From Lytechinus pictus (taxonomy: Eukaryota): DNA of 64,000 nt. The notes under the pieces are model-generated. The model did not search any database. It saw nothing but the letters and a program-made list of their open reading frames with translations, and was not told where the DNA came from. The stretch covers positions 5,892,001 to 5,956,000 of the forward strand of contig NC_087251.1 in assembly GCF_037042905.1 (NCBI RefSeq), read 5' to 3'. The position numbers and the translations under genes were made by a program. This document shows positions 2,626 to 38,570 of the stretch, one piece after another. How positions within the stretch are numbered: position 1 is the first letter of the stretch; each line of letters opens with the position of its first letter.

Positions 2626-3002
2626 CCCCTTTCATAAACCCATCCTCCAATTAGCCGCCTAAGAGTAATGCGGATAATTCAATAAAAATTGCGTTCGCAA
2701 ACTCCGAAAATAATCCGCACTATTTTTACGAGCGCCCGTCCTGAAAAAGGCGGATAATCGTCATGACAACTGGACACGCCCCCTCCGATGCGGTTGTGTT
2801 GGAAAAGGGTGACCTTGTGACCGCACCATGGCAATTATCCGTATTATTTGAAAATGCGTTCATAAAGTAAAAAATCTGGTCCCGATGCCGCTATTATGCG
2901 GATAATTGCAGCATAAAAATAATGCGGATAACTCTGGTCCTCCTCTGATTTTACGACCAAATTATGCTGCTATTAGCCGCATAATTGGGTTTATGAAAGG
3001 GG
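2626..3002. mobile_element. MITE (non-autonomous DNA transposon), superfamily uncertain
   Basis: Perfect inverted ends taatacccctttcataaaccca (2621-2642) / tgggtttatgaaaggggtatta (2986-3007); TA on both sides of the cccc/gggg ends; CpG-rich interior with repeated gcggataat / attatccg motifs. Confidence 0.8.
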
Positions 3003-6000
3003 TATTAGAAGGCATGAATCCTTGTTTAACAAACTTCTTTGGTGTTGATTCATGAAGCAATATTCACTGTTTAGTTTGCTACAAGAATCTTACTTTGGCA
3101 AACACCTTCAGTGTCGATCCATCCATCTCTTTCTGATAAGGTGTCAAACTTTATTGAATCATGATATATAGTTCATCATAAACTTTTTTTTTATACACAC
3201 TCTTAGATAAAAAGATCTTGACCTTGAATTATTGTACTTTTTCAAGTTGTATCACCAGTATTGTAGACCTACCAAGGTCTTCTTAAAACATCTTTTGAAT
3301 TACAATTGAAGACAATATAATAATGCAGACATAAAGAAAATTCCTTCTGAGAAAAAGTAATTAAAATTATTATTCTTATATTATGTGAGTACTGTAATAC
3401 ATTATTCATAATCACAATACAGGTGAGATCCATAAGATTGTATTGAGATGAGTCTGTGTTCAAGATTTTATGATGAAGAAGACCTCTACTTCACCTCAGC
3501 TCATAAAAAAGACAATAAATAGTCGCATTATAGCTGGGATTGTTGGCTGTCAATGTAGAAATAAGATCAGGGCCAAGAATATCACTTGCGACCTCATCTA
3601 ACAAAAACAATCGTAAGTAACATCAAGATATTATGGATACCATCAGATGGAAATACACTGGTTGAACAAAGGACATTTTGATCATGGACAACTGGCATAC
3701 TTTGCTGGTCAGTATGAAATTGAAAATTTTTTATACAGTCTGTATGGGATATCAAACAAGGAACTGAAGAATTTTGCATTAAAAAGTTTAGTAAAAAAAA
3801 ATCATATATGAAATACCAGATTTTTATTTGAAGTCATTGGCATACCAAGATATTTTGTATCAGAATGAAAAAAAAATCAAAATCATTCTTTGTTGAAGAG
3901 GTGAATATGGATCATTTGATAAGTCATTGAAGTATGAAATACAAGATTTAGGATTATTGTACAGCACTATATCATTTGGGAAAAATACGCTATTCTATCT
4001 TTGCCACTCTCCACCCAGGTTCAAATGGGAAATGTCAGGAAGGCCTTGTATACTTTGAAGCCCCTATGTCTTAAAGCACTTTGTCTAATGGTATACATGA
4101 GTTTCTCAGCTTAAAAATAGGGTTATCATTTCATGTATGGAGTACAAGGGGTTAATAAAGATGCAGCTGTTGAAAGTTGGCAAATTATTATTTGGTGATT
4201 GATCTTCATCTATGGACTTATGACCATCTCTGTGGTTGAAGGGAACAAGTGACATGTGTGCCTGTGATGGATGTAAACGATATCTGTTCCAGACAGGCGC
4301 AGACATTGCAAGTAATGAAGATAATGGTCTCCAAGAGGTGCCAGCCGTTTGTCTTTTGCCTTTTCTTCTTCATCCCCTTGTTTTTATGTTGTTCCTGCCG
4401 ATTACTGTCCAAATCAAAACAAGGTAATCAGAGGGGGTCTCATCCCTTCTGCAGTTATGGTCTGGTTTTCTCATTATTAGATGACAGTGTCAATCAGTAA
4501 GACAACTTGTGTCTTGACTATGAAGAAATAAGATGCTTTGAGGAGGGGTAAACTAGTTATTATTCCAATCTACCCATGATGACAGGCTGTAATATAGTCA
4601 ATAAAAGCTTACTTTACATATGATAGGTGGAGGAGGGCAGGTGATATGAGTTTAAAGAGAAATAGAAAGAGGGTTGCAGAATACAAGGAGATGAGAGAGT
4701 TTAACGATGATCTCTATTGTAGTTGGCAACATTATTATTTGGGGATGCGGTTACCAGTATACCTGTTATGTTCAATTCCTTAGTATCATGGTACACTGAG
4801 GTAATATTCAAAGTCAATGAAAGATTGATGGGGCAAGATGGGATGAGGAAAGGATAGAGGAAACAAATAGGATGGAGATTTATATTACAATGTGTTTGAT
4901 ATAACAGTTCATTAACATCACCCAAATTGATTAACTTAGATGTGGGGATGAAGAAAAGAATACAGATTAAATCACTTGAGATCAGTAGTGTACTTTCTGA
5001 ACCGTGTTTGTAGTTTGTATGTATGGGGGGGAGACCATTTTCTGCCTATTTTTGTTTGGGGTGAGGATTAGCCAGTGAGTGTGTTAGTACTGAAGTACTT
5101 GAACCTTTAAAAGGGGTGTGAGAGTTCAGCTTTTGATTTTGCTTTTGATTTTTTTAGCTTAACTTCAGCTTATTTCAGCTTTGTACAAAAGTTTGGGAGC
5201 TCTTTCAATTTTAGGTTTTTTTCAACACTCCAGCTTTTTGTTATCGTGCACACTCCTGCTTTAAGAATTTCAAAGTAGTTTTGCTATCACCAAGCATCGA
5301 CCCCCCTCCCCCTCTGCAGAGTCCATTTTTAATCATCCAGCATATACTCAAGTCATCTGCTAGAGGAGAAGTGACACAATATGCGAACAGAAGGAGGGGA
5401 TGATAGGGGATGATAAGGCAGAATGATTCTGCATTTGTTCAAAGTTTTTAGGAGAGTTAGTAATGATTCTGTTTTGAATGATTGTTAGTGATGCAGGACT
5501 AAGCATTACTACTTAGTGCATTTCATTATAAGATCCCAAACCATGACAAGAAGTAGACTGGTCTCCTTGATAAAAGTTATTCTGATGCATTGGAAAGTCA
5601 TCCCATATCTACCATGCAAATATTAGAGAAAATTAAAACTAAGCACCAAAGGTAGCATGACTGCTTAGAGTATTTTCATGGGTCATACATTTGGGCTTCT
5701 TTGCAACAGTGAGCATATGAACATGCATACCTTGAATTTTGCATAAGGGGTCTGTGGTGCATGGTATGTCTGAATTAATTTCATTAGTTAACAATTAGTT
5801 TTGACAACTTAGTTATTATTTTTTTTAAATAAAGAAGTTCTCACAAATAAAACAAATCAATTTAGTTCATTTGTAAACAATACATGTTCTGTAATCTGTA
5901 TGACTATTGTCAACACAACAACCATGCCTTAGTCTTGAACTTTGACTGGAATTTTACCCAGCCTTTGAAGATTAAGAAGAAGTCCCGCAAACTCGTAGCA

Positions 6001-7897: not shown

Positions 7898-8052
7898 CAG
7901 CCTGTTGCATAAAACTTTTTACCTGAGAAAACTCTGGTAAAAACTGAAAACTAAGGTTAGTCTGATTTCTGCCATTGACTTTAACACGGGGCAAAAGCTC
8001 AGGTAAAAAATACCTGAGTTTTCTCAGGTAAAAAGTTTTATGCAACAGGCCC
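7898..8052. mobile_element. Short palindromic MITE, PIF/Harbinger-like
   Basis: About 35-bp inverted repeats gcctgttgcataaaactttttacctgagaaaactc / gagttttctcaggtaaaaagttttatgcaacaggc; CTG direct repeat on both flanks (7895-7897, 8053-8055). Confidence 0.75.
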
Positions 8053-11000
8053 CTGATTGGCTATCCATGCATATATTAGCATTTGGGTAATGTGCAGCAA
8101 TACGCACCCCAAATATGCAATGTTTTGACTTGAGCATTAATTAAAGTTTTTCTTTCATCCGTCCCTACATTATGAGTGTAAGGGTGGAAAAGGTTTTGTT
8201 TGTTTTGAGGCTTTTAATAAAATTCACAATTCATTAGATGACAGAATTACCATTGTTGATTATGAAATAGGTACCCACACATGGCCTATCATCAATGTAG
8301 GTCCATTTAGAAGAAACTTCTTTTGACATAATTATATCATTGTCTAATATCTAGGTGCCAAAACATGTTCCATAGAGCATTTGACTGAGCAAGGGGTCGA
8401 TGACGTGAGTGTAATACCCGAAGAAAAAAAACACATTGATGAAGCATTGACACCATGCTTCATTAAATAACAATCATTTCCATGCCATAGTAATTTGTGC
8501 AAAATAAAGAAATGGTTATACAAGGAGAGGCATTCTATCTTGAAGGTTACTTTCAGTTAACTTCATGACCTTCAATTTTTCAAAATTTCAAATCAATACA
8601 GTTTGAAAGTTTGGAACAAGAAGGGAAATAATTACATAAAGGCAAAAGGTAAAGAGAGAAAGATGGAGAAGAGATAGGTATAAAAACGGACTAAGATAGC
8701 AATATAGATAAAACTATAGAGATAGAGAGGAGACATCAGAGAGGAAGAAAATACACAACAGTAGAGATGGAGTAAGGTAACATGGTAATGAGAATGGGGG
8801 CAGAAAGGGGGGACAGAGAAAAGAAAAAAGAAGGGTAAAATGGGTTTTTTTTTAAGTCAGAGAGAAGAGATAAAAGGGGGAAGGAGCAAGAGACAGAGGG
8901 AGAGAGGGAGTTAGATAGCACATTCATGTGAATGATTCCACTCATTCCTTCCAAGCATGAAATTGTTTGAAGAAGCCGACAAGGGATGATAAAGTCCATG
9001 GAATCAGAATATTTTCAAAGGGGCATCCGTCGTTGAGAGAACAGCTCTTATTGGAAACTGAAAAATTGTCAGTGTGAGAAACTTATAGACGGGCATTAAA
9101 GCAGCTGTGGGCTGTCTAATAAAATTGTCCGCAAATTTACACACAAAATCATGAACGACCAATTTGTGTAGAGCCAAAGGTATGTCTCATTCACATTAGC
9201 TGAAGTTGAAATGTGTAAATGTTGCATTCAAATTCTCAGGGTAAGTTTTGTTGTTTTAGAATCTATAATTTAAGATCAAATATAATATGTAAGCTTAAGC
9301 TATTGAAATTTGAATGAATTAAAGAGAAAGGCTGTAACTGGTTTGTTGGATGAGTATGTAATATTCTTATGGGGTAAAACAAAGTTTTCAGTACAACAAA
9401 TCAAAGTGGCTTTATAAGATCTCGTTTTAGGAAGAGGCAAACCAGAAGCAGTTCATGGACAGGTACCAGATTAAGATCATTGTGGTTGCAATGCTGTAAG
9501 GGTGTGTTCAATCAAATATCTTTGCCAGACACACAAACAAGAATCACTCAAAATACAAACACATAATATGGTTATTTAAAAAGAGCATTTAATCACATTG
9601 TTTTTCAATCTCACGTACATGCCCAGCATGCATCACAGATGAATGAGTTTGACCCAGAATTTGAAAGCCAGCTTGGGATTGTATGCATTTGACGTATGAA
9701 GGGGGGGGGGGGGCTGTAGTAGAAGCATGATCAAGGTTTTTGCAGTTTTCAGTTGACTTTTCATATCTATCATTCTACAGGCTCGCTTATCAAATTGCAC
9801 CTTTTGGGGGGGCTTCCTGTTGGTTGATTTGAAAGACATAGTTTTGCAAGTGACCTTTATTTGAAGAAATCATTGTTTAAAAGCATGTTTGTAGGTTTAA
9901 ATATTTCTTGATTGAACACAACCTAAGTTTAATCACTCTTCAGTAGCATGCTTTCTGCACCTTGAACATGTAATAGATGTAATCTATTCTTGATAAAGGA
10001 CAGTGGTTTACCATAATGAGAAGTACCTTCATTCTTTCACCTCTGGTTGTAACACAGTTTAAAGTTATACTTTCAAGACTTTTTGAAAAGTGATCAGAAT
10101 TATGAGAAAATGGATATAGACTTTTAATCATGTTTCTTTGTATTTATGAAATTTACAGCTCTAGGCAAACACATTCAGCAATATGTTTGATTGAATTGTG
10201 TAAATTATGTAGACCTGATGCCTATGATCATAGGCAAAGAAATGCAGGCATACAAAAGAAAGTTTTCAATTACTGGATATTTCAAATTTAAAATTAGAAA
10301 TAAATGTCATGAATGTAAATCACAATGGTTAATGAAAATTGTACATCCTGACAGTTAATGTTTAAAGAGCAATATAAAATAAACAGAAGAAACTTTTTAT
10401 ACAGTTAGATGATACATTGATATGTATCAGCTTTAAAATTTTCAAGCCAGCTAGGTAAAAAGCAAAATTTTATTGATTCTTCCAGTTTAAGTGCCCAGAC
10501 TGTTTTATAACAAGATTTGTTTCTTATCTTTTACCCTTTTCTGTGGTAATTTTGTGAGATTCGGTTCTTGACAAGCTAACCAATAAGAGCATCACTTTTC
10601 CCTTTATTAAAATCTCAAATTTGATCAGCTTATTTGGTTTAACTCATTCTACTTGATCCGCTTTACAAGGAAATGAGGTGAAACAAGGATATACCGTACT
10701 TACCTTGTTTTCTAAGACCCAGGAATACACTTTTTCTTCAAGCTTAAAAAGAGTTAAACCCCAAAACTTATATAGCCTTTATCAGATGCAGAAAATGAAT
10801 ATTGAAGTGAAAGTATGCTGGAAAGCTTGACAAGGAATTTTAAATCATGAATCTATTTGAAAGTTTAAATTACTGTTTACAGTATTAAGGTGTGAACCTA
10901 TCATCAGGGTCGGGAATTTATTAGATATCAGCACTTAATGCCTTTCTTGCACTTTGAGGGCTAAATTGGTTTTTCCCAATTAATGAAGTTTTACAATCTT

Positions 11001-14000
11001 TGATTATTATTTCATTCCCAACATTCTGTACAGTAACTATTGAGTCAATGAAGAGGATAGATTATTCTCTTTGCCTTGTTTTGTTTGTGAAAAAGAAAAC
11101 TTTATAATTATATTAATTTCTAAGTGTGTAAAAAACCACATTACACAGCCCCTGTAATGTGATTCAAATTCAAAATATTTTATCCAGTAATTGAAAACTT
11201 ACTTTTGTATGCCTGCATTTCTTTGCTTATGATCATAGGCATCAGGAAATATACATTTTTTTACACTCACCTCATACTTGTTGAAAATATTCCACTTGCA
11301 TGTACTTGACATGATTTTTGTAATTTTTCTAATGTTCATTTTGAGACATCGATCATTGATAAACCAAATATTTATATATATATATATAAGTATAAATTCA
11401 ATCACCATGCAGTTGCATGAAGTATCTGTTTTAATTGCATGACAGGTGTTATTATCATTAATATTTGTGTTAATCATTGAACCAATTAATATGACTGTTA
11501 GAAAGTAGGGGTGGAGAAAAATCACAAATTAGTTATTCTGAACATGTACCTCGCCAAACTTGAATTATGTTTTCTAATTGGTTGATTTAAAAAGAAATTA
11601 ATATGACAGCTTAAACTCTAGGTTTCAAGTCACATGGAATTGCTGTATATCAAATAACTTCCAGTTGAGACTGAGAGCATCTTGTAACATAAAATAAAAT
11701 AAAATCACATTTTTTGTTTTATATGTTTTTGTTTGTTTTGTATGATTATCCAGATTTTTTTTAATCTGCATGATCACTTCCATTTGTTTTATTGTTTGTA
11801 AGAACAGTACCTATCAGTTGATACTCTTGTGTAATAAGTCCTTTTGGGTTAATTTTTAGTTCAGAGCAGATTCCATGTAAATCAGCTTAGTTCTGATAAA
11901 AATCTTACTAAAATGGTAATAACTACGATTGCACATTTGTGAACAATCTGCCTATCAAAACGTTTTATCAGCCAATATCAAAACAGGTTTCCTGGTATAA
12001 CAGCAGGTCTTATTCAAATCCTGAGGTGATTAGATACTTTATAATATAGTTTGGTTGTTTAGTTTCTTGGACTCCGAATGTGTCCAGAGTTGGATATTTA
12101 GCAGCGGAAATGGAAAAGTGACTGGAATTGATCCAGCAAAGTTGATTTGAAAGTCAGATTTTTAAAGTAGATTTATTACTGTGGCAAATGACCGATTGAA
12201 CCGAGAACTACCCTGGCTTTTGATAGCAGACCTCGGGGAGAGTTCGGAAAAGGCTTCAGTTTTAATGGATGAAAGAATACAAGAAATAGAAAGGAATGAG
12301 GGAGGATATTTTATGCAATATCAAAAATGAAAGTGAAAAAAAAATCAACAGAAAATTGAGTTGAGTACAAAAAAATGTTTCAACCATCATGTCATTCAAA
12401 AGTAAGCTGTTTTAGAACATGAGTCATCTTTAGTGAAGGCAGACATGTCATCGACCTCTCTCAATAAATAACCTTCATCCCTCTCCCGAAATGTGTTTCT
12501 ATTCAGCAACATTTGAACTATGCCAATTAATGAAGCAATCAGTAGATCATTAACACAGTTGCAAAGAACAATAAAATACTGAATTCATCAGAAAGCACTG
12601 ACCTGTGATAAATACATCTTTTTCATGGAATATTGATTAAATGGGAGGTCCATCTTTTGTTTCTCATTGCGGTAGAGTTGATTGTGACAATTCCATTTCG
12701 TCAAGCCTCAAACATTGGATGCACCCAGGTGCTAATGATGCATTGCAATAAAATAGAACCATCAAGGTTATACTGTTTGATGTTGACAGTTCAATATCTT
12801 GAACAAAGGGAAAGGAATATGTAATCATTTAAAAAATACAATAATTTTAAGTATTTATAAATTTGATTTATAATATGATGATGAATATGATGATAACATG
12901 ATAATTATAATAAAAATCATATAATAATCATAATGATAATAGTAATATTAATAATAGATATCATTTATTTAAATGGGTACAACGAAGTTCGTAACATTTT
13001 CTAACATTTTTTCTAACATTTTCTTTGCCTTTCCAGTATACATCTAGGATAATATCTATGGATAATATTTTTCGATTGAGTAGTTTTTTTTTATTTATCT
13101 TTTAGTTTGCTTACACTGTATTTCTCCTTTGTCTTTACCAATAATGTATTTTTATAAGCTGATATTCAAATAAATCACACCTTCTCTTGGTTCTCTCTTG
13201 TATGAGAGCTCATTTCTTCCTGCATCATCCTGGTAATAATGAATAATTTTTTTGGGAAATGTGATATCATTCCCATTCTGGTAATTATGTTCCCCTTCCC
13301 ATGGATTACAGATCCCATGGTTGCTCTGAAACGTTTGACTTGGAAAGGGGAAATTGATACAGTTCTATTCAACAGAGAAGGAGTATGGGAACCTGCATTT
13401 TAATTTTTCAATTCAAGACTTGCCATTGTGATTTTGATATTTGTCCTCTTATCCGTCTTGTTTCATTTGGTAATTTTTATATTTTTGTGTTTTCTTTCCA
13501 CCAGCCTTATTTATTCTTAACCATGTTTTGTTTTAGCTTACCCTTGCTTCTTTCCCATTATCCCTCTAACCTCTGAAAGTTTGACCATCCCCACCAATGT
13601 TCCCTCTTTCATCGTCTATATAAGCATCGCATCTGTTTTAACATTGACTATCACCATCTGAATTTATCCTAATTTTTTTTTCATTTTATTCTAATTTCTA
13701 ATAAATTCTGTTTTCTCTTACTTTAAAGAATTAAAATCTGCGCTCTTCCGCATTGGTCTCAATGAGATTACTTTTTAACTTTCTATTCAGTCTCCTTGAT
13801 GAAACTTATTTCTCTTCAGCTGTCTGCTCTTAAAATAGACACCCCCCCCCCTTGAATTCAGTCCCTCCTTCACCCCCTCTCTCTCTCTTTATCTCCCAAT
13901 CCATCCACCTTTCACACTGTCATCCTTTCTACCAGTCATAGGTCTCTCCCACTTTCCTCCTCCCCATTCGAAAATATTTTTCCCTCTTACTTTGTCTCCC

Positions 14001-16012: not shown

Positions 16013-17787
16013 ATTTGATTTGATTTTATTTCAGCATTTTTCCAACAGAAATAATTAACAAACATAATGTACAACATAAAGAAAAAAATAGTGATACATT
16101 TCTTTTTACAAAAATAAATACAAATAATCATTCATTTGCAAAAATGTATATAGATAGTATTAGTTTGCAATATTATAAATTGTACTTTGTTGAGTAGACA
16201 AAAAAAAAATGCTGGAGACCGCTACCATAAGCAGTGCTTGACTAGGGTAGCGGCCTCAAAACGTATTAGCGAAATAGACAAAAAAGAACGAAGTACAAAT
16301 CAAGCATTGACTTAAATTAATTATAAACAGATATTATTAATACGATATTTACATGCAAGAACCTTGTATGCCTGATATTATGTGCACATTTGACGTATTT
16401 GCATGTGTTTGTGCATGTGCAAACGTTTGCGCGTGTGCAAATGTATATTTAAAATTGTATGTGTATGTATAAGTGTGTGTGTGTGTGTTGAGAGTGGGTG
16501 TGCGTGTATGTGTGTCGGTATATGAGGGTGTGGGGGTAGTATTAATTAGGAATTATTGAATGGTTCCAGGATACAGCTTGAAATGATAGAAAAGTTTAAT
16601 ACTATGACTTAACTTTTTGTCTCACCTGCATAGCAGAGTGAGACTATAGGCGCCGCTTTTCCGACGGCGACGGCGGCGGCGGCGTCAACACCAAATCTTA
16701 ACCTGAGGTTAAGTTTTTGAAATGACAGCATAACTTAGAAAGTATATGGACCTAGTTCATGAAACTTGGCCATAAGGTTAATCAAGTATTACTGAACATC
16801 CTGCCTGAGTTTCATGTCACATGACCAAGGTCAAAGGTCATTTAGGGTCAATGAACTTAGACCATGTTGGGGGAATCAACATCAAAATCTTAACCTAAGG
16901 TTAAGTTTTTGAAATGTCATCATAACTTAGAAAATATATGGACCTAGTTCATGAAACTTATACATAAGGTTAATCAAGTATCACTGAACATCCTGCATGA
17001 GTTTCACATCACATGACCAAGGTCAAAGGTCATTTAGGGTCAATGAACTTTTGCCGAATTGGGGGTATCTGTTGAATTACCATCATAACTTTGATAGTTT
17101 ATGGATCTGATTCATGAAACTTGGACATAATAGTAATCAAGTATTACTGAACATCCTGTGCAAGTTTCAGGTCACATGATCAAGGTCAAAGGTCATTTAG
17201 GGTCAATGAACTTTGGCCAAATTGGGGTATTTGTTGAATTACAGCCATAAATTTGAAAGTGTGTTGGTCTAGTTCATAAAACTTATTCATAATAGTAATC
17301 AAGTATCACTGAACATCCTGTGCGAGTTTCAGGTCACATGATCAAGGTCAAAGGTCATGTAAGGTCAAAGAACTTTGGCCACGTTGGGGGTATTTGTTGA
17401 ATTGCCATCATATCTCTATAAGTGTATTGGTCTAGTTCATAAAACGTGGAAATAAGAGTAACCAAGTATCACTGAACATCTTGTGCGAGTTATAGTAGTT
17501 TTCAAAATCAGCACTGCTGCTATATTGAATCGCGTGATGCAGGTGAGACGGCCAGAGGCATTCCACTTGTTTCATTTTCTGATGTAACAGTTTATGAGAT
17601 CAGATAGAAATTAAAAATTTACCAAGAAAATTGAAAATTGACCAAGACCCATAGAACTCTTTTTATATATATGCATAAATTATTCAGAATTGTATTTGCA
17701 TGTCATAAATTTTTTAAAGGATGATTTGAATGAGTTAAGAGAGGGACATTGTTTTAAGTATTGTGGTAAGGAATTCCAGGTATCTGG
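16013..17787 (-). mobile_element. 5'-truncated LINE (CR1/L2/Crack-like) 3' end, interrupted by a Helentron-type element
   Basis: Minus-strand 17787-17680 translates PDTWNSLPQYLKQCPSLNSFKSSFKKFMTCKYNSE*, the WNSLP...SL..FK C-terminus typical of CR1/L2 ORF2; stem-loop gagaccgctacc...ggtagcggcctc near 16215-16257; tail reads aaataaaatcaaatcaaat on the minus strand. Confidence 0.75.
16614..17572 (+). mobile_element. Non-autonomous Helentron-type element (HINE/DINE-1-like), family A copy 1
   Basis: Inserted in a T run with no TSD; 13-bp subterminal inverted repeats gtctcacctgcat (16619) / atgcaggtgagac (17537); short 5' IR gtgagac; (GGC)n microsatellite; tandem units of 192, 163 and 162 bp. Confidence 0.85.
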
Positions 17788-20716: not shown

Positions 20717-22719
20717 TTTTTGTCTCACCTGCATAGCAGAGTGAGACTATAGGCACCGCTTTTCCGACGGCGGCGGTGGCGTCAACACCAACTCTTAGCC
20801 TAAGGTTTAGTTTTTGATATGACAGCATAACTTAGAAAGTATATGGACCTAGTTCATGAAACTTGGGCATAAGGTTAAGTATTATTAACCGTATCAGACA
20901 TCTGAGCAGGGCAAATTTATTACATTGTTGCCTGCTTAAGACTGGGATCAAGTTGTCGGTCAATAAATTTCCATTTGTTTAACCATGGACAAATTTATTG
21001 CCCGCTCAGGAAAGTCAATGAGAAAATGCGTGGAAATGTAGCGGGTAAAACATATCCGGGTATTCTACGTGCTTTTGTACGCGGCCTTGGACCGCGCAGT
21101 GCTATACGTCTCAATGCTAATCAAGTTGAGACAACGCTGGATCCTGCGTCCCTAGGCCAGGGATGCGTCATGTCAATTTCGTCACAATGGTAAAGTTCAG
21201 AGTCCCAGTCTGCTCAAAATGACTAGATTCCCATTCTTAAACTCTAAAATATCTAAATTTTAACGATTTTTGCTCTAGATGTCTGATTTGGTTAATAATA
21301 GCAATATCAACTGGCCTGGGGGCGAAAGGACATATATCGCCCTCACTTTGGGCAATATATGTCGTATCGCCCCGAGGCCAGTCAATATTGCTCAATAACT
21401 GAACATTCTGCCTGAGTTTCAGGTCACATGACCAAGGTCAAAGGTCATTTAGGTTCAATGAACTAAGACCATGTTGGGGGAATCAACATCAAAATCTTAA
21501 CCTAAGGTTAAGTTTTTGAAATGTCATCATAACTTAGAAAATGTATTGACTAACTTCATGAAACTTGGACATAAGGTTAATCAAGTATTACTGAACATCC
21601 TTCTTGAGTTTCACGTCACATGAACAATGTGAAAGGTCATTTAGGGTCAATGAACTTTGGCCGAATTGGGGGTATCTGTTGAATTACCATCATAACTTTA
21701 AAATTTTATGGATCTGATTCATGAAACTTGGACATAATAGTAATCAAGTATCACTGAACATCCTGTGCAAGTTTCAGGTCACATGATTAAGGTCAAAGGT
21801 CATTTAGGGTCAATGAACTTTGGCCAAATTGGGGGTATTTGTTGAACTACCATCATAACTTTGAAAGTTTATTGGTCTAGTTCATAAAACTTGGACATAA
21901 GAGATACCACATATCACTGAACATCCTGTGCGAATTTCAGGTCACATGACCAAGGTCATTTAAGGTCAATGAACTTTGGCCATGTTGGGGGTATTTGTTA
22001 AATTACCATCATAACTTTGAAATTTTATGGATCTGATTCATGAAACTTGGCCATAAGAGTAATCAAGTATCTTTGAACATCCCGTCCGAGTTTCAGGTCA
22101 CATGACCAAGGTCATTTAAGGTCAATGAACTTTGGCCATGTTGGGGGTATTTGTTGAATTACCATCATATCTCTGTAAGTGTATTGGTCTAGTTCATAAA
22201 ACGTGGACATAAGAGTAACCAAGTATCACTGAACATCTTGTGCGAGTTTCAGGTCACATGACCAAGGTCAAAGGTCAATGGACTTTGGCCATGTTGGGGG
22301 TATTTGTTGAATTACCATCATAACTCTGTAAGTATATTGGTCTAGTTCATAAAACTTGGACATAAGAGTCATCAAGTATCACTGAACATCTCATGCAAGT
22401 TTGAGGTCGCATGACCAAAGTCAAAGGTCATTTAAGGTCGTTGAACTTTTGCCATTTTAGAGGTAATTATTAGATTGCTGTCATAACTTTCAAAGTTTAT
22501 AGATATAGTGTATAAAATGTGGGTATAGGGGTAATCAAGTATCACTGACAAGTTTTAGGTCACATGATCAAAGTCAAATGTCAATGAACATAGTATTGTA
22601 TCATTATATGAATGGTGTTTTTTGTGAATAATTATTTTATAGTAGTTTGCAAAGTCAGCACTGCTGCTACATTGAATCGCGTGATGCAGGTGAGACAGCC
22701 AGAGGCATTCCACTTGTTT
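20717..22719 (+). mobile_element. Non-autonomous Helentron-type element, family A copy 2, with about 8 tandem units and a nested 514-bp insertion
   Basis: Same ends as 16614-17572 (tttttgtctcacctgcatagcagagtgagac ... atgcaggtgagac.gccagaggcattccacttgttt); units of about 153-193 bp. Confidence 0.85.
20884..21397. mobile_element. TSD-less 514-bp insertion with two abutting inverted-repeat pairs (candidate non-autonomous tyrosine-recombinase/Crypton-like element)
   Basis: Absent from the paralogous copy, whose empty site reads agtatt|actgaac near 16790; left end pairs with 21271-21300; right end pairs with 21301-21342. Confidence 0.65.
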
Positions 22720-25042
22720 AACCAGTTGTACTGCTATGAATGTAAACCTGTAAATTGTACACGATTCAGCCCTTTGGCTGCAAAGTGCAATATTAATAAA
22801 AACTTTTCAATTCAATGTCATAGCTGGCACTGTTTTGGAGATGCACAGTTACTGAATCTGTCCTTGTGTCAGACTAACAGTAACAGGTTCTCTTTTTCTT
22901 AGATACATTACCATGATGTAATTTTCTCCTGTTTTTTTATGCTTTCTGGTTTGAAACTTGCAATCAGTTTGTGAATAAGTAAGCAATGAATTCTGAGTAT
23001 GTGGATGTATTTGTTAGGGTTGGATATCTTTTCCTTCCTTGAAAGCAAAGCGCAATGAATCCCAGGGGTTTCTAATGAGGGGACACACACTGTCCTGATG
23101 CTTCATGCATTATGCATAGAAGACTGATGAAGGCTAATCATCATACTTGGCTACATCTGTTCTTCAATTGATGTGATATACAGGTTGAGAGTAAGGGGTG
23201 GGGAGCTAAACATCATTGCACATGGGTGATCTGAAGGCTACATTGCCCATAGATGATCATAGTACAGTCCCAAGTTCACAGAGTTACAAAGGGTTTTAGA
23301 GATTCCACTGTCCCCCATGATAAAAATTTGTAATTGATCTAATCAGTTTCGGCCATGGAAAGGTAAAGATCATATATAATTCGTCATCTAAAATGTTTAC
23401 AATGGTACTATCAAGAAACAAAATATGCTAATTAGCTATAAGGGTGTTGCAAGAGACTTGCAGTCCATTGTATGTCCTAAAATCAATAATAAGTCTTGTA
23501 ATTAATTGTAGATATACAATTGATTACTACTTGTCCACTTCTTGAGATGAAAATCATCGATATTGGGAAAAATGAGAGAAAATGTTTATTGCTTAAGTGC
23601 AAAGAATCCATTAACCCAACTTGATATTTTGATTTCTCGTCTGAGATAAGGACTATGAGTTGTGCTTTCATAGCACGTGCACTGTGGACTCCTGTGTTTG
23701 AACTGGTATCATGAATAATTTTCCTCAGTTTCACTTCAAAATGACTTCTAAAGCATGCTCTTTTCTGAATAAAAGGGGCTGGGTTAGCTCAGGCATGAAG
23801 CCATGAGATTGATTTCATAATGTAGCCCTCTGGTTGTGTCTTGTTAAAGAAGAATCTCAAGCTAATTGGTTTTCCAGATCAAGAATAGTGAACGTAATTG
23901 GACATCTGTGGTTGATGATGACTAGCCTTCTATAGTTGGTATTACTGTAGGTTTGGTAAGCACTGCCCAGAAAGTGCGCAAGACTAAGATAAATAAAAGA
24001 AGGAAAGAAGATTTATTAACATACATTTCCCATTATCATGTTCTTACAAGATATTAATCTGAATATTTAATGTAGTTGTGATGTATCTATCTACTTTGCT
24101 AGTTCATGTTTCATGGACTGCCTTCGAATATATATGTACACAGATTTCTTTGCGCGATAGCGCGAACCCATGTCTACTTCCACTCACACCTATATCATGC
24201 TAGCAAGTACGTTAAACTTCTTTATTTGCTGTAAATAACTGGGATATAATCATTTGATTTGCAAGTTCATTACGATTAACTTGCACGCCGAATAAAAGTA
24301 CACAATTTTCCAGCGTGCACGCGCTGCATCTCCCTATGAACGCACTATCCCAAGATCATCGTGCAAATTGGCGTCCATTCCCTCTTTTACTTTCGCCTGC
24401 CGCTGAGCACACACGTAGCTTAGTACATTCCCAAAATTGCATTTTTAAATCGTTAGTTTGACTGTTTTATCTTTGCATTTATCCCTTATTTCAATCTTTT
24501 CCTTTGGTTATAGATTGTTTAAAGTCATATCCTACCTCGCGGTGCCCTACGTGATATTTATTTCACGTTTTTATTCCATATTTCTTGTGAGTTTGAAAAC
24601 AAGATTACGTTTCCTCGCAGACGGGTTGCCTTTAACCCCCCCCCCCCCGCTGCTCCGCGCTCTCCTGTGTGTCGTGGGCGTTGATCCGACGCTTCCTTCT
24701 TCTTTATAATTCCTTATAATTCTTTTAATTCACTGACTTTACGCTTTTCGCTCCTCTCCACAGGTTCTGCTGGACTGGTAGGAGCGTCGTACCTTCTGTC
24801 TTAAACTTGTTTCAACTCTGTTGTTCTTGTTTTCAAGTTGGTTGATTGTTCCCTTTGTTTCAATCAATCCCTTTGTTCCTATTGTTCTTGTGAATTAATT
24901 AATTATTTTTAATTAATTAAAAAAAATTCTTAAACCTTGTCTTGAAAAAAAAAAAATTCACTCTTCCTCTGAGATCAGACATAGTATCTCAGCCTCTGTC
25001 GGGTATCGTGCATCATCGGCCTGCGGTCCTCTTCTTAACCAC

Positions 25043-25340
25043 ATGGCCGTTATCGGGCAGGATGCAAAAGCGTTAGGCCTTTCTGATCGTGCCTCTCAGT
25101 TGGTGATCCAGAGTCGGAGACATTTGACACTTGATCTTTACAATTCTCGTTTGGGCCGGTTCTCAGATTGGTGTACCACGCGGTCTATTGATCCTCGCAA
25201 CACTTTTATTGCCGCGATCGCGGATTTCTTTGTCCATCTTTTCGACATCGGTCGTTCGCTTTCAACCATCAGGGGTTTCCAGTCAATGATTGCCGCGTTT
25301 CATTCCAAGTTCCCAGATGGCTCTAACGTCTCGGGTCCTG
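25043..25340 (+). pseudogene. N-terminal core-binding (SAM-like) domain remnant of a DIRS tyrosine recombinase
   Basis: GLSDRASQLVIQSRRHLTLDLYNSRLGRFSDWC...DP...IADFFVHLF...STIRGFQSMIAAFH fits the DIRS recombinase pattern GLS..A..L...S.R..T...Y......F..WC...DP......DFL..LF.....STI..Y.SAI...H; no catalytic domain follows. Confidence 0.75.
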
Positions 25341-28300
25341 AGGTGCAGTTTTCTGAAACGGCGGTGAGTATGAAGGCAAACGGTAGAGTCCTTTGCAATG
25401 GGCTTGGAAGGGGATGGAACCATGTTATTTATGGAAGACGTTCACGTGCCCTCAAGGTGATGGCCAAGGACCTGTGACGGGGCCTAAACGGGAGGGGAAA
25501 CCCAAATCCTCAGCATCTTCCCCAGGTCTGCTCGACCCACCAGCCTTGGACAGAGCGCGGCTCTTTCCCCAGCATTAATATCGACTAGGCTCGATGCCTT
25601 GAGAGTCCCATACCCGGGGTGTAGGCAAAGGGCAGTCAGACCCTAGTCGCAAGAGACGTGTTGACTCTGTCAGCTCTTCGCTTTTGGTGAGAGGGACACA
25701 TCACCCAGGTCTAAAGTGAGGTGCCTCGCCTGACTCCAAAACTGGTGGCATTGACTTGATGCCAGCCTTCCCGACAATCAGGATGGCGGCTGTGGAGGAT
25801 CCCTGACCAGATTCAGAGCCTCTTGTTAACCCTCTTCTGCTCTAGCGGAGCCCCCGACAGAAGAGAAGGAAGAGTGAGGTGTCACAGGAATATAAGCCCT
25901 GACTAGTCAGGTGATCCTACCTCCTCTTGCGTTAAGTCTCAGACGCTAATGAATTTAATTCATAGCGCTCTAGACCAGTGTGGGCTCGTTTCATCGAGCA
26001 CCTCACAGGTCGCATCCGCCTGTGTCCCAGCACACCATAGTGATCGGCCAAGCGTAGAAAGCTTTTCCACGCTGAAAGAATCCGCCAGTGTTACTCACGT
26101 TTCTCTGTCGCCCAGGCCAGCACAAGGGGTGACTCCCCCCGTGCATCAGGCCCTGTCTGACAGTCTAGTACAGTCATGCTGGCTCAACTAGCCATGACTG
26201 CTGGCAGTATGATGTAGTTAACCACCCCGGCAGCTCTCAGCGCTCCACGCGGGGAGGAGACTGTCCATTAAGATGACCCCCCGCAGCTTATTGATGAAGA
26301 ATACTCGTCCATCAACAAATCTTTCCATGAGACATCCATGGGCACGACTCCCTAGCCAACACCCATAGTGAGAAGCACTTGTTCGGGGGAGAGATCGCCT
26401 CTCTCCTCAAGAGGAGATTGAGGTCAAAATAGGCAAATGAGATTATGAACAATCCTCAAAGCCTCCCACCCGCAGTTCTTCCTTTCGGAAAACTGTTGAA
26501 GGCTCCCCTGAGCCGCCCCTCAGCTGCCGCCCAGCAGCTTTGCGGCAGCCTTATGCTACTGCAACAGTAAGCCACTCGTGCTAAAGACCATGAGCGTTTG
26601 TGGTTCCAGCAGAGGGAGCAAAAAATGTTAAGATGTGAACCAGATGTTTACTGACACTCCTATATTTGGTGTAACGACGGAGCAATATCACAACTTTAAT
26701 TTAAGTTGCTGCATACTCTCGAGCTCTTTGGCGTTTTACCTACCAGCTCCATGCTTTCCTTATCCCTTGATTCTCGGCATGTAGAAGGTGAATTGTCAGC
26801 ATCTTACATGGCTGGAATGGAATTAAATTTCTACTACCACCGCTACCTGCTGGGAAGCATATACCCCTTCTGTCGCAGGTTTTTCTGGGCGCCCGCTTGA
26901 GTCATCACCCCCTATTTGCGGGCCGCGGCCTTAGCTCCCTAACCACAATAAGCTGGTTGGAGCTTCAGGGTGTCATTACTCTACCTCGCTACCCTTGCGG
27001 TCAAGCTCTCCGTAATTTTTGGTGGTTCCACCTCCTCTGGTGTTCTTGAGATCTGAGGGTTTGTCCCCATCGACTCTCCCCCATTTTCTCGGCGGCCTGG
27101 GCTGCTGGATGTATTGATGTGTTATGTAACACTCCTAATCAAATCCCCTTTTAGAGGCAAAGAGCCTAGAATCTCTCCTTCTCTTTTCGCCACACCTTCT
27201 AGGGTGAAATGGAGGAGAAGAACAAGGTATACCTCCCCTAATCTTAGGGGTAGTTCCTTTACCGGGCCAGACGGAAATACCTTTCAGTACTGATTTTTCA
27301 CCGACGGCCCAGCCGCAGTCTTATCAGTTTGCCGTCTGGGGAACTAGACTAGTCGGTAATCTGGGTTTCCCCGATGCAGTCGGATAGCACCGCTAGATTT
27401 TCTGGGAGATACCATGGGGTTTATATTTGACAGTCCGCCAAGACTTTCCCAGAGCGGTGTGTTTTGTTACTGGTCATGCCAGGCATTTTTCTGCCCTAGC
27501 TCCTGTTCTTTACTGCCTCAGATCATGGCGCCGATTGGGCGTGTTTTGATATTGTCATTCCCGAACACACGATGGCACACCAAGCTAGCGTCAAGTACCT
27601 TATCCGCACATGAGCACCGGCTTTCAACCACTGCTCTGCCCCCCGTGTTGTCGGGGATGGGCTGAGGTTGGTTTACCACTCCTTGAGGATGTGTTCACAC
27701 CTCACCCTTTTGTGAAAAGTTCACTTCTTCTGAGCTAGTCTATTCTAACTTTAGCACAGTAGCGGTTTAGGGCTTATCATATGGGACTAGTCACCTGACT
27801 TCCCTTAGTGTACTACGCCCCTGTGGAGGCTTTCACACCACCCATTTGGCTTAACTCATTTTAGTTTTCGCTTCTTTTGCCGAGTAGTCTGTTTATTATT
27901 TTTATCACGGACTTATCAAGGTAGAGTACAGTGTTGCCTCACTCGGGTGTGTTATTACGGAGGCTTTCACACCTTTCCTGTGGTGTAAATTTCTCTCCTT
28001 GTGCACAGCAGTCTCTTGGGTGTAGGAGTTTGTGCGCATGTCTCTGGTTTTCAAACACAGCCAGACCTGAGCCTCCCCGGGTCGCAAGCCTCTTGTTGTG
28101 CTACACTTCGGGGGCTTTCACACCACCCCAGTATCATACCCTTCCCCTCGGCACTTGGTGCACTATAGGGGAACGATACCTATGGCTTGTTGTTGGATGA
28201 TACGATCAACTTAACGCAAGCTGTTTTGATGTGGGAGGCAATACCAGAATACCTTGTACCCTCCATGGTGCACTACCTATCTGAAGCCTAGCCTCTCCCT

Positions 28301-28859
28301 CATTATTAGGGGGAGTCTGCTGGGCTGGAGCTCACGCCATTCCGTGTACCTTAATTTCTGTCGCGGAAATAAACATCAGATTAGTCTAGGTTTTACACAT
28401 GAGGCTTTTTAGAGATGCTTGTTGTGTCTCCTCAGGTCGGGCGTGTATGAGCTCACTTCAGACTTGGCTGCCAATGCCAGTGACAACCAGTCTTAACTTG
28501 GAAGTTTTTTTGCTGCTTCGGCTGTTTTTCTTCTTGCTCATTTATTCTAACTCGAATCTAAAATATATCCTAGATTGTTGAAGTACTTGTCCCAAGTGCC
28601 CTCCAAGGAGGAAACTTGTGCATTTTTGGAGTCTCTCTCAGGCTCATGTCGCCTTAGCATTTTCCTTGTTGAGCCTAGGTTAGGCCTTCTTGATGCATCG
28701 TATTACGTGTTTATTTTTGACAAGACATAATATGTTCGCAAATCGGAACAACTCTTGTATTCTTGTACAAATCCTGCCTTTCCCACTTCTTCATTTTGGA
28801 TCGCTTGGATGATCCAAGCGGCGGGCGCAGGTGCATGGCTATTGATGCGAGGTTGGAGG

Positions 28860-28975
28860 CTCTGGATACGAAGAAGTATTCACATGTCTTGAGCACTCTT
28901 CTTCAAGGTGTTCTCCTCAAAGACATGAGATGTTCCTGGCATTTTGCCTTTCCCTTACAAATTTTTAAAAGGAAA
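28860..28975 (+). pseudogene. Possible eroded C-terminal part of the DIRS tyrosine recombinase
   Basis: LDTKKYSHVLSTLLQGVLLKDMRCSWHF resembles H..R....S.A...GV.L.DI...A.W and lies just upstream of the ICR, the canonical position; catalytic residues are not retained. Confidence 0.4.
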
Positions 28976-31099
28976 ATTCCTCGGCTGAGGAGAGCTTGCG
29001 CCCTCAGCCTTGAAAGCAGCGGCCTCCGCATCTACATCTCCCTTGAACTTAGTTACTTCCTTTTTGTGACATGCCTCCCATGGTTATCTGTGCCAGTCTA
29101 GCAAAGTAGATGGATACATCCCAATTATTGAAGTAAATCATGAAAATACCTCCCTGATTTTCATATTTACGAGATAATCGGATGTATCCATGTACTATCC
29201 TGCCCTCCGTCCCCTCGCCTTGCGTGGATACATGTCACTTTTGCGAGTGCTTAAAGAGGAGGTTTAACGTACATGCTAGCATGAGATAGATGTGAGCGGA
29301 AGTAGACATAGGTTTGCCGGGAGGTGGCACTATCGCACAAAGAAATATGTGTACATATATATTCGAGGGTAGTCCATGAAACATGAACTAGCAAAGTAGA
29401 TGGATACATCTTATTATCTCGTAAATAAGAAAATATGGTATTTTCATGATTTCCCCTAAAATTCATATAAATAGTGAGGACTTGGTATACAGGTACTAAA
29501 TCCGTAAGATCCCTGATTGAAATTTACTACTATCCTTTTATGAATCATACACCATTTAAGATTTAGAGCTTATCTCTTCATCTTCCTGTGACTTTGCCTA
29601 TTGTATACAAATATATCAACTCTCTCACTCATGAGATGAAACATATCTTTTCTATCCTTTTTTTCATATTCAAGTTTCAAATATTCCAAATGTAATTTCA
29701 GTAAACATGTACAAAATCATGAATATGGTCATCTGTATGGGATTTTTTTTTTTTTACATGTGTAGCTCTCCCTCCCGCTTTCAGGTTGATATCTTGGAGA
29801 GGGGAAACTTTTCGAAAATTGCAAAATGGAAAAGAAAGCATAAAGGAATAAACATTGAAATTTGGGAGGGATGAAAGAAGAAATATGAGGGGTTAGGGGG
29901 AAACAGAGAGATAATTTTTTTCAGAGAACTGAGCATCCCACTCTCCCAGGTCAGTATGACCCCTGTAAGGTCAAGGTTACCTAGTGACGCTTGCTTGTAT
30001 GCTACTGCTTAATCACTGTAAATGTGCAAATCATCTTCATGGAAAGAAAATTGACGGGTCTTGGTTGGCCAGGTTTGATGCTCATCCAAGCAAACTTCAG
30101 ACGCTGTTATTTTTTCATCAACCTATCTCTAGCTCTTTGTCAATCAATAACCCTCTTGAGAGAGCGTTGGCCATAAATCATTTCAGGATGAACTTGAATT
30201 TAAAGCAGCTTCATGTTTTCTGTTTTAAAAAAGGGTCAAGCGATTCGGAAAGATGAACAAAATTTTGGCTTTTTGAAATTTAAAGTATCATTACTAAAAA
30301 CTGTAAGAGTACAATAGTGTGAAATTATGAAGAAGGTGTATTATATCGAGCATACACCTCCTCCCCCACTAACACGCAAACACACTTTTTGAAGTTAGTA
30401 TAAAATATATCTAGGAACTGACTCCAGCAACAGTAGGCCTATGTCTGTTGTATTTTTTTCTGGGCTCTCTTTCTTTTATTCTTTCCATCATTTTTTTGGG
30501 TGCTAAATATGGCTAAAAGCAGCTTATGTCATTATCAGGGATATTGAAATTTCCCATATTGCAAAAAGACATTTAAAGTCAAAAGTGGTATCCATAATTT
30601 TATGTGCGTTATTACTTCCTAACTCTTTTTTAAGTTCCTTGCCTCCTTATTGATAAGAGAGTTAATCTATGCTAATTGTATTAGACATGCTTCTGTCATG
30701 GCAGATATTTGGTAACTCATACTTGTTTTGTTACCATTGTGTTGTTATCATTATTAAATCATCATCATTATCCAAAGTAGATCTTAACAGAGTTTTGGCA
30801 ACATCATCGTAGTCGTTGAATCATGTATGTCATTGAATCATGTATTTGGAGTAAAACTTTGTGAAAATATATTTTGGTTAATATAGTTTTGAAAAAGCAG
30901 TAGATTGTATTTAAGGAGAGTAAGTAAGCAGTATGTGATGAAGATGCTTGAAAAGCAGTAAACTACTGCCAAAAGGTGTAGAATTGGCTACTATATATAA
31001 AAGGACATATTTTGATTATACAAAAAATACCTGTCTCTAAATTAAGTGTGATGACCAGATTGTATATTGGTTTTAAAAAAGGTCATGATATCGTCTATG

Positions 31100-32480
31100 A
31101 TATTATGAACCGGCTCAAACCTAATTTTGGGTCAAATTTTCGAAATTTATTTTTTGCATATTCTGAAAGCCTGTGATTCACTATTGATTTGCCAAATTTC
31201 AGATCAATTTTTGTATTATTTAAAGAATGAGAGCATATTGAAATTTATTACGAATAATCTCAACCCCATCCTTTGATTTTACAAACTGGCTCAAACCATT
31301 TTATGTGTACTATAAAGTCTCTTGGAATGGCATGCACAGGTCAAAGACCCGACCAAGATGCGTCTACAAAAACGTGCATGGCATGAATGATAATACAAAC
31401 TGGCTCAAACCATGGTTTGTGCTGTCAAAAAACAGTGCGCATGGTATGCATGATTTTACGAAGTGACTCAAACCCCTTTTTGTCTCGCCCACCAGAGGTG
31501 AAGGCGAGACTTAGGGATCCAAATGTCGTCCGCCGTCCTTATGACACATAACTCCACAACCGTAAGTCACTTTTCAACCAAGACCTGGATGTTACGCTGC
31601 AGTCGGAGGTCACATGGTAAGGTCAAAGGTCATTTTCAGGTCAACGTTAAAGTTTACATGCAAGACTCTCTTATGACACCTAACTCTGCAACCGCAAGTC
31701 ACTTTTCAACCAAACTTGGATGGTAGATGGACTTGGGGGACCTGCATGTTAGGCTGCAGTCGGAGGTCACATGGTAAGGTCAAAGGTCATTTTCAGGTCA
31801 ACGTTAGAGTTTACATACAAGACTCTCTTATGACACCCAACTCCGCAACCGTAAGTCACTTTTCAACCAAACTTGGATGGTAGATGGACTTGGGGGACCT
31901 GCATTTTATGCTGCAGTCGGAGGTCACATGGTAAGGTCAAAGGTCATTTTCAGGTCAACGTTAAAGTTAACATGCAAGGCTCTCTTATGACACCTAACTC
32001 CGCAAATGTAAGTCACTTTTCAACCAAACTTGGATGGTAGATGTACTTAGACGACCTGCATGTTATGCTGCAGTCAGAGGTCACATGGTAAGGTCAAAGG
32101 TTATTTTCAGGTCAACATTAAAGTTTACGTGCAAGGCTCTTATGACAAGTGTTATTCCATCCCAGTCATTTCAAAATGAAGTCTCGATACAATTCTGTTG
32201 CGTGCCCTCGCAAATCACGATATTTCTGGTTATTTTCATAAGTGGGCGAGACACAAAATCGCTTTTGCCTTGGTTTGTAGAAATTAGTAGCTTTGGAATG
32301 TATACATGCGCTTTAATTCAAATATTGAAGGAATGAATACGAACTGCGGACAAAATTTTGTTAATTATAAAAGCGCAAAGTTATGAGCGTCTGAAAAACA
32401 TACAAACTCAAACTTTGAATGTGATTATCCCAAAATCATGTTTTGGAGACCAGCCGAGGTTTGAGCCAGCTCATAAAATT
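31100..32480. mobile_element. Non-autonomous TIR element hosting a Helentron-type insertion
   Basis: ttatgaaccggctcaaacct (31103) vs aggtttgagccagctcataa (32457), 18/20 inverted match; motif repeated internally near 31280, 31395 and 31455; TSD not resolved. Confidence 0.55.
31477..32276 (+). mobile_element. Non-autonomous Helentron-type element, family B copy 1, four 157-bp tandem units
   Basis: T-run insertion; subterminal inverted repeats tgtctcgcccac / gtgggcgagaca; 5' IR ggcgagac; gtcc-type microsatellite remnant; 3' mini-hairpin caaaa-tcgc-ttttg; unit marker aaggtcaaagg at 31619, 31776, 31933, 32090. Confidence 0.85.
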
Positions 32481-36837: not shown

Positions 36838-38570
36838 CACTCTAAGTTTTTATTAGTCAAGCGGGGGCAAAGATTTGTCAAACTTGCAGTAAAAATTTGT
36901 CATGCCATCATGACGATCACTTTATGTCAATTGACAAATCACTTTATAGTTTGACAAATTAAAAATCGGGAAACACCAATTCACGTCTCTACGTTACGAA
37001 TGTAAATCCTGCTTTGACAAACTACTTTAACTGACGAATCCAACAAGCACGAATTGACAAATGGATATTGTCAGTCCGATTGCACACGACGAATCTTATC
37101 AGACTTGACAAATTGAGGGACGAATTTAGACGTACAATACAAATTTTGGAAGGAAAGTTTTTGACAAATTTAAAACGGGTTTCCTTATCTTAAAAGATTT
37201 GTCATAATTCACATCGTGCGCATGCGCCCTGGAGATCGAGAGCAAATTTTTTGGTATCGCCATTCGATCGCAAACTCTCGCTTCCCTCACTGCACTGTCT
37301 CCAGGGACCAGGCCCGGCACTTCAGATCCTACCTGCAGTGACATCGACGTAGAACAACGGGTATGCACAACTTAATTTTTAATTGTCACGCAAATATTGA
37401 CAGTTACAGAGCTGTATAGACCTAACTGTTGCACATGTAGACTGTACTAGGCTGTATTAAAGTTCTCTATTGCCTGGCGCTGGCTGCTTACGGTCTGTAG
37501 CCAGGCCGGCATAGGCCTACCGGTACCGGTAGCACTAACGTTAGGCTCTAACCACTGGATGCAATAGCAATACACACAGGGTTTTTTCGAATTATAAATA
37601 GGCCTAGCTCTAGATCTAACGTTAGATCTATATGCAAGGAAGTTTGATGTTCTGAGTCTGACCCCTTTCGTGGTCTGATGCCGTCGGACTAAAGTCACAA
37701 CAGTTAGGCCTATTCTAGCTTCATCTTTTTCTATCTCTAGACTAGATCTAGATCTAACGTTAAACTCCTATCTAACGTTCTAGATCTATATCTAACTTTA
37801 GGTCTAATGTTAGACTAGTCTACATAATTAGAACTCTAACTTAGTGATGTAGATCTACTAGATCTAACGTTTGACCTAACGTTAGAATCTAACTTAGATC
37901 TACTAGTTAAAACTTAAAGTTCCACTTCATCAGTTACCCACTCGTATTCGTAACTAGAGGTCTAGACCTAAGACTAGAGTTAGGCTAGGTCCTATTCTGC
38001 ATGGAGTGTAGGCCTAGATCTAGGGTCTAGATCTCTATTTTTTTTTTAATTTGATAGAGTCTAGAATTCTAGGTTAGATCTAAATAAGTTAGAATCTAGT
38101 CTTGCATTTCGGATCACACACATTATTAAGTAATCTAGATCTAGAGTTACATGTGCAACAGTTAGGTTTATACAGCTCTAATGTATTAACTGTCAATATT
38201 TGTGTGACAATAAGTTGTGCATGCCATGACAACTCTGTTGTCAGCGACATAAACGATTAGTCATGCAGTGGGTTTCCGTGCAGTGCTAAATGACAAATTA
38301 ATTTTCATACATTACAAATTAATTTCCATGCATGACATACTGATTTTTTTGCATGACGAATCAAAATGGAAATTTGTCAAATAAGACCACTTTTCATTAC
38401 GAATTAAAATTTGTCTAATGACAAATCTTTTCCCATAAATACTTGACGAATTAAATTTGTCAAGGAAATCTGCTTGCATGACAAATTTATTTGACAAATT
38501 CAAAGTTTGTCAAATAAGACCATGTTTTGACGATTTTTTTTTGTCAATTGACTAGGTATTTTTAAGAGTG
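36838..38570. mobile_element. Non-autonomous CACTA/EnSpm(CMC)-like element
   Basis: TA|CACTCT...AGAGTG|TA ends; many subterminal ttgacaaa/tttgtcaa motifs in both arms; inner inverted repeat of about 80 bp (37363-37443 / 38145-38222). Confidence 0.7.

Follow-up and report, generated by a model that had tools for sequence, protein, structure and literature searches.

The 512-bp insertion at positions 20881 to 21392 (+ strand) of a stretch of Lytechinus pictus DNA is very probably a non-autonomous CryptonA DNA transposon, as judged from short terminal motifs and an architecture that link it to relatives from other animals. All positions refer to this stretch of 64,000 nucleotides (contig NC_087251.1), which was analyzed as a whole and is herein called the window. 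We infer that the element in all likelihood belongs to CryptonA and is mobilized in trans, with an autonomous copy elsewhere in the genome supplying the tyrosine recombinase. It represents neither a new class nor a derivative of DIRS; non-autonomous CryptonA elements are already known, and the element by itself is a decayed member of an ordinary family. What is new is the terminal plan, L...L′R′-hairpin-R, in the DNA of other animals, where it is tied to an intact recombinase gene. In this plan, each end (L and R) has an inverted partner inside the element (L′ and R′), and the two partners lie directly next to each other. The literature searched contains no such plan for Cryptons; Repbase, Dfam, figures, and subscription journals lay outside this search and may have it.

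Architecture of the element

The + strand of the element corresponds to the orientation of the gene in autonomous relatives. It starts with the left terminus L (20881–20908, +), which begins ATTATTAACC... and has its counterpart in TTTATAAAA.. at the 5′ end of two complete relatives, L047 and L003. The inverted copy L′ (21271–21299, − strand) pairs with L in 26 of 29 columns (E 1.8e-4 in the window) and directly abuts R′ (21300–21342, +), the inner arm of a terminal hairpin. R′ is followed by a hairpin loop, 7 nt long in the window copy (21343–21349, +), and by the outer arm R (21350–21392, +), with which the hairpin reaches the right terminus (...ATATTGCT, then CAA); the arms measure 43 nt each and match at 86%. 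A preliminary description of this DNA had placed the inverted left end at 21271–21300 and the inverted right end immediately after it, at 21301–21342, and both repeats are recovered here with their borders moved by one position. The site at which L′ and R′ meet contains the 16-mer TATTGCT-ATTATTAAC (21291–21306, −), which is identical in 13 of 16 positions to TATTGCT-TTTATAAAA found in the CryptonA relatives. Further inside, a small inverted repeat with 14-bp arms and a 20-nt loop is located at 20957–21004 (no strand assigned).

A double-hairpin fold, as proposed before, is predicted for the single strand: the stems L:L′ and R′:R abut end to end, and none of 100 shuffled sequences is equally stable (z −9.0). 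The longest open frame comprises 95 codons, the element gives no profile match, and it has no coding capacity. It contains neither terminal inverted repeats nor long direct repeats, and terminal direct repeats of 4 to 6 bp, a trait of CryptonF and CryptonS of fungi and oomycetes that is not reported for animal Cryptons either, are absent at all six pairs of bounds that were tried. An identity from Rfam was rejected, as the seven matches, all microRNA hairpins, score far below the gathering thresholds.

Among the six pairs of bounds, only 20881–21392 puts the joined ends in register with the internal site. Herein, R joined to L is colinear with the inverted internal site without gaps, with 24 of 28 positions and the central 18 nt identical, and the rejoined host carries one extra and three missing bases relative to its paralog. 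The bounds had earlier been regarded as defined at 20884–21397; with these, the rejoined host is short of 4 nt and R joined to L does not fall into register with the internal site, so that the bounds shift by 3 to 5 nt. The claim that the internal site approximates the reverse complement of the right end joined to the left end therefore stands for 20881–21392 but fails for 20884–21397. None of the six pairs restores the exact paralogous empty site, since the rejoined host lacks either TCAA on the left or three bases on the right, and the ends remain uncertain by about 4 to 5 nt. The element is flanked by ...AAGT and CAAT..., and direct repeats in the flanks do not exceed 2 nt at any of the six pairs; thus there is no target site duplication (TSD), in agreement with the preliminary description. 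TCAA, the tetramer missing at the left junction, stands at the right junction (21392–21397), so that some bases seem to have been displaced; for SE elements, bases carried along from the donor site are described in PMC9345347. The left junction (20873–20890) forms a palindrome, GGTTAA-6 nt-TTAACC, half of which is host-derived.

Host repeat and neighboring elements

The host is a non-autonomous, Helentron/HINE-like repeat of approximately 2 kb (20717–22719, +), judged by comparison with the features given in PMC4067079. It carries 13-bp subterminal inverted repeats at 20722–20734 and 22684–22696 and central tandem units of 156 to 192 bp, the first of which received the element. An array of 157-bp units at 31582–32147 is related to these tandem units. 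A paralogous host copy without the insertion lies at 16614–17572 (+), with the empty site at about 16777–16797; its part 16614–16993 is 92% identical to the host. Empty sites are also present in sequencing reads as joints from 20878 to 21398 with either TCAAGTATT or TCAAGTATC in between, which confirms, together with the paralog, the empty host site reported earlier.

At a distance of 2.7 kb from the element, a decayed DIRS1-type element occupies 24073–29452. It possesses inverted terminal repeats (ITRs; 24080–24220 and 29259–29410), an internal complementary region (ICR) at about 29098–29201, and a right extension to 29452. Its ORF fragment at 24917–25477 resembles the N-terminal SAM-like domains of integrases (Atlas score 0.96, to be taken as a lead only), matches no Pfam family, and is unrelated to CryptonA by BLASTP. 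Other inverted-repeat pairs of 40 to 900 bp, probably MITEs or fold-back elements, are found at 47718–48581/49273–50147, 10214–11246, 37360–38225, 40296–40706, and 7900–8050.

Relatives with the same ends

The ends of Crypton-N1_SSa and of CryptonA-N2_SSa from salmon, and those of human Eulor5/Eulor6, combine a hairpin with a similar junction motif, and this resemblance led to a scan for relatives. The pattern consisted of the two hairpin-base heptamers and the start of L′ with some degenerate letters, and it yielded 133 loci, 85 from metagenomes and 48 from GTDB. Because the pattern was loosened with these fish Cryptons in mind, the scan is biased toward these; the heptamer spacing of the window element itself, 79 nt, lies just under the gap ranges scanned. 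Some 119 of the 133 loci are apparently due to chance and were left out of later comparisons, and the A/T-rich locus L026 (score 32) was dropped after viewing.

Long hairpins occur in nine of the 133 loci, although the pattern did not demand them. Translation of these loci led to the C terminus of a recombinase. Its single longer homolog is P0001, a protein from fish carrying both DUF3504 and Phage_integrase domains. With this CryptonA protein, tblastn gave matches in six of the 133 loci, one of them weak (E 0.002), and a profile of 54 homologs gave matches in five. In all six recombinase-bearing loci, the gene points toward the junction and the hairpin; it is intact in L047 and decayed in the five others. 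The homologs with names among the best 120 are cnidarian. The junction TATTGCT-TTTATAAAA is present in all 14 relatives examined, with one variant only. The 13 of 16 identities of the window junction are reached at 11 of 128,000 positions in the window, and this match sits exactly where the two stems meet; other motif matches of that level (55659/55680, 30902/31065, and 63022/63362) were viewed and have no such anatomy. The exact 16-mer of the window occurs in 13 of the 133 loci, none of which has a long hairpin or a recombinase match. The terminal TATTGCT is followed by TAA in seven of 11 loci and by CAA in the window. BLASTN aligned the window element to none of the relatives.

The complete relative L047 is an element of 2113 bp (2206–4318) with the 5′ end TTTATAAAATAACT and the plan L...L′R′-hairpin-R. 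Its ORF matches DUF3504 (E 3.5e-8, above the cut-off), Phage_integrase (9.2e-7), and QRICH1 (1e-5, below the cut-off) and contains the recombinase motifs RRG, NHSVR, SGH, and LQNY; the gene appears to contain an intron. L′ lies at 4180–4192, R′ directly after it, and R ends at 4318. The joined ends agree with its own internal site at 25 of 28 positions, and its stem pairs without gaps over only 11 bp. Besides the recombinase exons, L047 contains no ORF of at least 100 amino acids starting at ATG for a polymerase or reverse transcriptase. By its sequence, L047 is an intact-looking CryptonA and a candidate for both enzyme and substrate. L003 (59–520) is a complete element of 462 bp without a gene; it follows the same plan, its joined ends agree with the internal site at 27 of 28 positions, and its predicted fold has a z of −13.1. 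The end-to-start junction thus equals the inverted internal site in all three complete elements (24 of 28 positions in the window, 25 in L047, and 27 in L003).

The preliminary description had taken the insertion for a non-coding element of the tyrosine-recombinase kind and had called for longer elements with such ends and a recombinase, with or without reverse transcriptase. L047 bears out the former, as it has the same plan around an intact DUF3504/phage-integrase gene, and answers to the latter with a recombinase and no reverse transcriptase, albeit from the DNA of another animal. The halves of the element, suspected of being two independent MITEs, stand together in the complete elements L047 and L003, and the window element is not flanked by a TSD, so that the refutation proposed in that description fails.

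Past their first 8 bases, the hairpin arms are family-specific: the window copy and 11 loci are identical in three to eight of 26 positions, whereas complementarity is kept. At stem positions 14 to 15 of the antisense strand, a mismatch of GA opposite GA is found in L003/L029 and in L111, and GA opposite AA in L039 and L035; it is absent from the window copy, L077, and L063. The R arm is echoed in direct orientation about 40 to 90 bp inward from the 5′ end in L047 (2243–2277; reached in none of 2000 shuffles) and in L003 (one of 2000); in the window element, the echo is not significant (222 of 2000). The antisense strand of the L003 loop contains C-GNA-G motifs.

Outside these loci, the exact family motifs gave no matches in viral contigs or in metagenomes, the architecture pattern gave none in viral contigs, and the CryptonA protein gave 39 candidates in viral contigs, none of which was confirmed. 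Among the 48 GTDB loci, only L111, an 822-bp contig of a bacterial assembly, has a long hairpin; it resembles the fish-like loci, its genome holds no second match, and it is probably contaminating animal DNA. The CryptonA profile has no match in the 64-kb window, and no autonomous partner of the family was found in it.

Copies in sequencing reads

Twenty public runs carry part of the element, and none carries half of its words. In all four runs that were aligned, each of the 30 bins of the element is covered. Compared with the window copy, the longest aligned pieces show about one difference per eight bases. In one run, as many as 63 contigs support a single variant site, and in two + strand contigs the alignment sets in at 20883, with 192 and 731 letters of foreign DNA upstream. 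Because of this divergence, the contig numbers, and the foreign flanks, the window element is regarded as a decayed copy of a dispersed multi-copy family. No second copy is located within the 64-kb window, and none of the listed read pieces spans the insertion 20881–21392. Other copies read T and G at 21308–21309 in R′, which improves the pairing with R, and at least one contig departs from the window sequence at 21347; hence, the loops of other copies may differ. In run X5, a joint leads from 21392 to 20880 with one T in between at a depth of 507. It may be a circle junction, a tandem junction, or the internal site of better-matching copies, whose inverted form would give the same joint. In the RNA run X23, the two strands have about the same coverage, which gives no information on expression; no RNA run is among the carriers listed.

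Family assignment

The element is most likely a CryptonA rather than a DIRS or HINE element because the same plan and the junction matched at 13 of 16 positions surround DUF3504 recombinase genes. Very improbable is the identity as a HINE, a Helentron-associated non-autonomous element with subterminal inverted repeats and a 3′ stem-loop that is moved by a Rep/helicase. The gross layout and the missing TSD are alike, and such elements exist in this genome, the host repeat being one. According to PMC4067079, however, HINEs have subterminal inverted repeats of 12 to 15 bp, with the 3′ copy 38 to 60 bp from the end, palindromes of 5 to 10 bp, and flanks of T runs (at least two T each). The repeat of the element measures 28 to 29 bp and lies 93 nt from the end, its 43-bp arms reach the terminus, and its flanks are not T runs; moreover, its junction motif links it to loci that contain a recombinase.

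That the element arose by deletion from a DIRS1-type retrotransposon, with L′R′ as the remnant ICR, is hardly credible: an internal region complementary to both termini (colinear at 24 of 28 positions) and the decayed DIRS-type element nearby would suit it, whereas the element lacks the ITR pair, the right-end extension, and the second L′ before R of that neighbor, shares nothing with the neighbor's ends (equally good scores are reached by 452, 140, and 320 of 500 shuffles), contains no reverse transcriptase or RNase H, and has in L047 a complete 2.1-kb relative with a recombinase only. The neighboring element was therefore rejected as the source of the ends. The earlier appeal to the logic of the DIRS1 ICR holds for the geometry, but not for the descent. 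ATon elements are TIR-bearing and AT-specific (PMC3422177) and do not match.

Mechanism of movement

The likeliest single model, favored tentatively at slightly less than an even chance, is that a single folded strand is the substrate of the recombinase, with L′R′ serving as the splint. A strand exposed at a replication fork or in an extruded cruciform would form the pairs L:L′ and R:R′. These stems would stack end to end, so that L′R′ would form a continuous splint and the host flanks would exit at one point. A single strand exchange at this point would join R to L and free a circle whose junction corresponds to the internal site. The element would stay on the other strand, and thus its copy number could rise. 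The circle would finally integrate at A/T-rich sites without duplication, sometimes displacing a few bases. Precedents are the tyrosine recombinases that act on folded single strands at integron attC sites (PMC2727003) and the strand-biased circles of SE elements (PMC9345347).

Neither arm of the hairpin is simply copied from the other, since the arms are unrelated in sequence between families yet complementary, and the mismatch at positions 14 to 15 is kept in three families; this suggests that the hairpin structure is under selection. Against the folded-strand model count the equal folding energies of the two strands (−35.8 and −35.9 kcal/mol), which provide no strand bias, as well as the short gap-free stem of L047 and the lack of the 14–15 mismatch in the window copy. 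In a wider sense, it is possible, at odds somewhat below even, that animal CryptonA elements, from coral-like to fish-like DNA and in Lytechinus pictus, are single-strand recombination elements that move replicatively in an integron-like manner and keep the donor. Such a route is described for no eukaryotic tyrosine-recombinase transposon in the literature searched.

Rather doubtful, though still a serious contender for the same family, is classical recombination between duplexes, in which the circle arises by two strand exchanges, L′, R′, and the arms serve as extra binding sites that organize the synapse, and the fold is incidental. Duplex circle excision through direct repeats of 4 to 6 bp is the proposal published for Cryptons (PMC3212892). 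Across animals, the sequence is conserved in the bases nearest to the junction, the 5′ echo of the R arm in L047 and L003 resembles arm-type binding sites, and the energies show no strand bias, all of which would suit such a mechanism. It leaves unexplained, however, why family-specific arms of 40 to 60 bp stay complementary, does not account for the exact abutment of L′ and R′ in the register of a circle junction in three of three complete elements, and faces joined ends that have no inverted symmetry around a 6- to 8-bp spacer.

A role in DNA synthesis is improbable. A terminal hairpin is a ready primer, and herein it would prime the copying of the released strand, while L′R′ would template the repair of the ends in the way of the DIRS1 ICR. 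The geometry indeed equals that of an ICR as defined in PMC6681497. Templated regeneration should, however, keep the arms perfectly complementary, whereas three families keep a fixed 2-nt mismatch, and the only gene found in L047 at the ORF threshold given above is the recombinase.

Implications

The movement of Cryptons has so far been proposed by analogy only, and the published account of animal Cryptons gives them no terminal repeats. The terminal plan common to the window element, the 462-bp L003, and the 2.1-kb L047 defines their ends to within a few bases. It thereby offers a rule for finding non-autonomous Cryptons that tools based on TIRs and TSDs miss, and it opens the mechanism to tests with short oligonucleotides. 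Should the model of the folded strand hold true, integron-type recombination would have a counterpart in eukaryotes, and high copy numbers would be accounted for; the 512-bp element would then be a minimal substrate, and L047 would provide the matching type of intact enzyme.

Comparison with known systems

HINE/DINE-1 derivatives of Helentrons share with the element a subterminal inverted repeat followed by a 3′ stem-loop and the absence of a TSD, but they have far shorter repeats and palindromes, T-run ends, and a Rep/helicase partner (PMC4067079). The ICR of DIRS1 likewise is an internal segment complementary to both termini within a tyrosine-recombinase system; in contrast to the element, DIRS1 has long ITRs and a reverse transcriptase and uses its ICR in reverse transcription (PMC6681497).

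Integron attC sites and SE elements resemble the proposed way of working: a tyrosine recombinase reads a folded strand or makes one-strand circles, the donor is not emptied, and the stems are conserved in structure and not in sequence (PMC2727003, PMC9345347). Both are bacterial and use other integrase families, and attC folds on itself without a splint of two distant ends.

Among Cryptons, Crypton-N1_SSa, CryptonA-N2_SSa, and Eulor5/Eulor6 are non-autonomous members with strongly similar termini (PMC5753468); the words "hairpin" and "palindrom" are absent from the main text of that report, which proposes no mechanism. For animal Cryptons, terminal repeats were not found, and the supplement lists them as n.d. 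(PMC3212892). Compared with these published descriptions, rather than with the sequences directly, the window element, L047, and L003 have an internal inverted partner for each end. A close resemblance in kind is to CryptonA-1N1_OL of medaka, a non-autonomous element of 554 bp, which is alike in size, lack of coding capacity, high copy number, and lack of a TSD (PMC3212892). As for CryptonA, the relatives that share the ends of the element encode a DUF3504 recombinase only.
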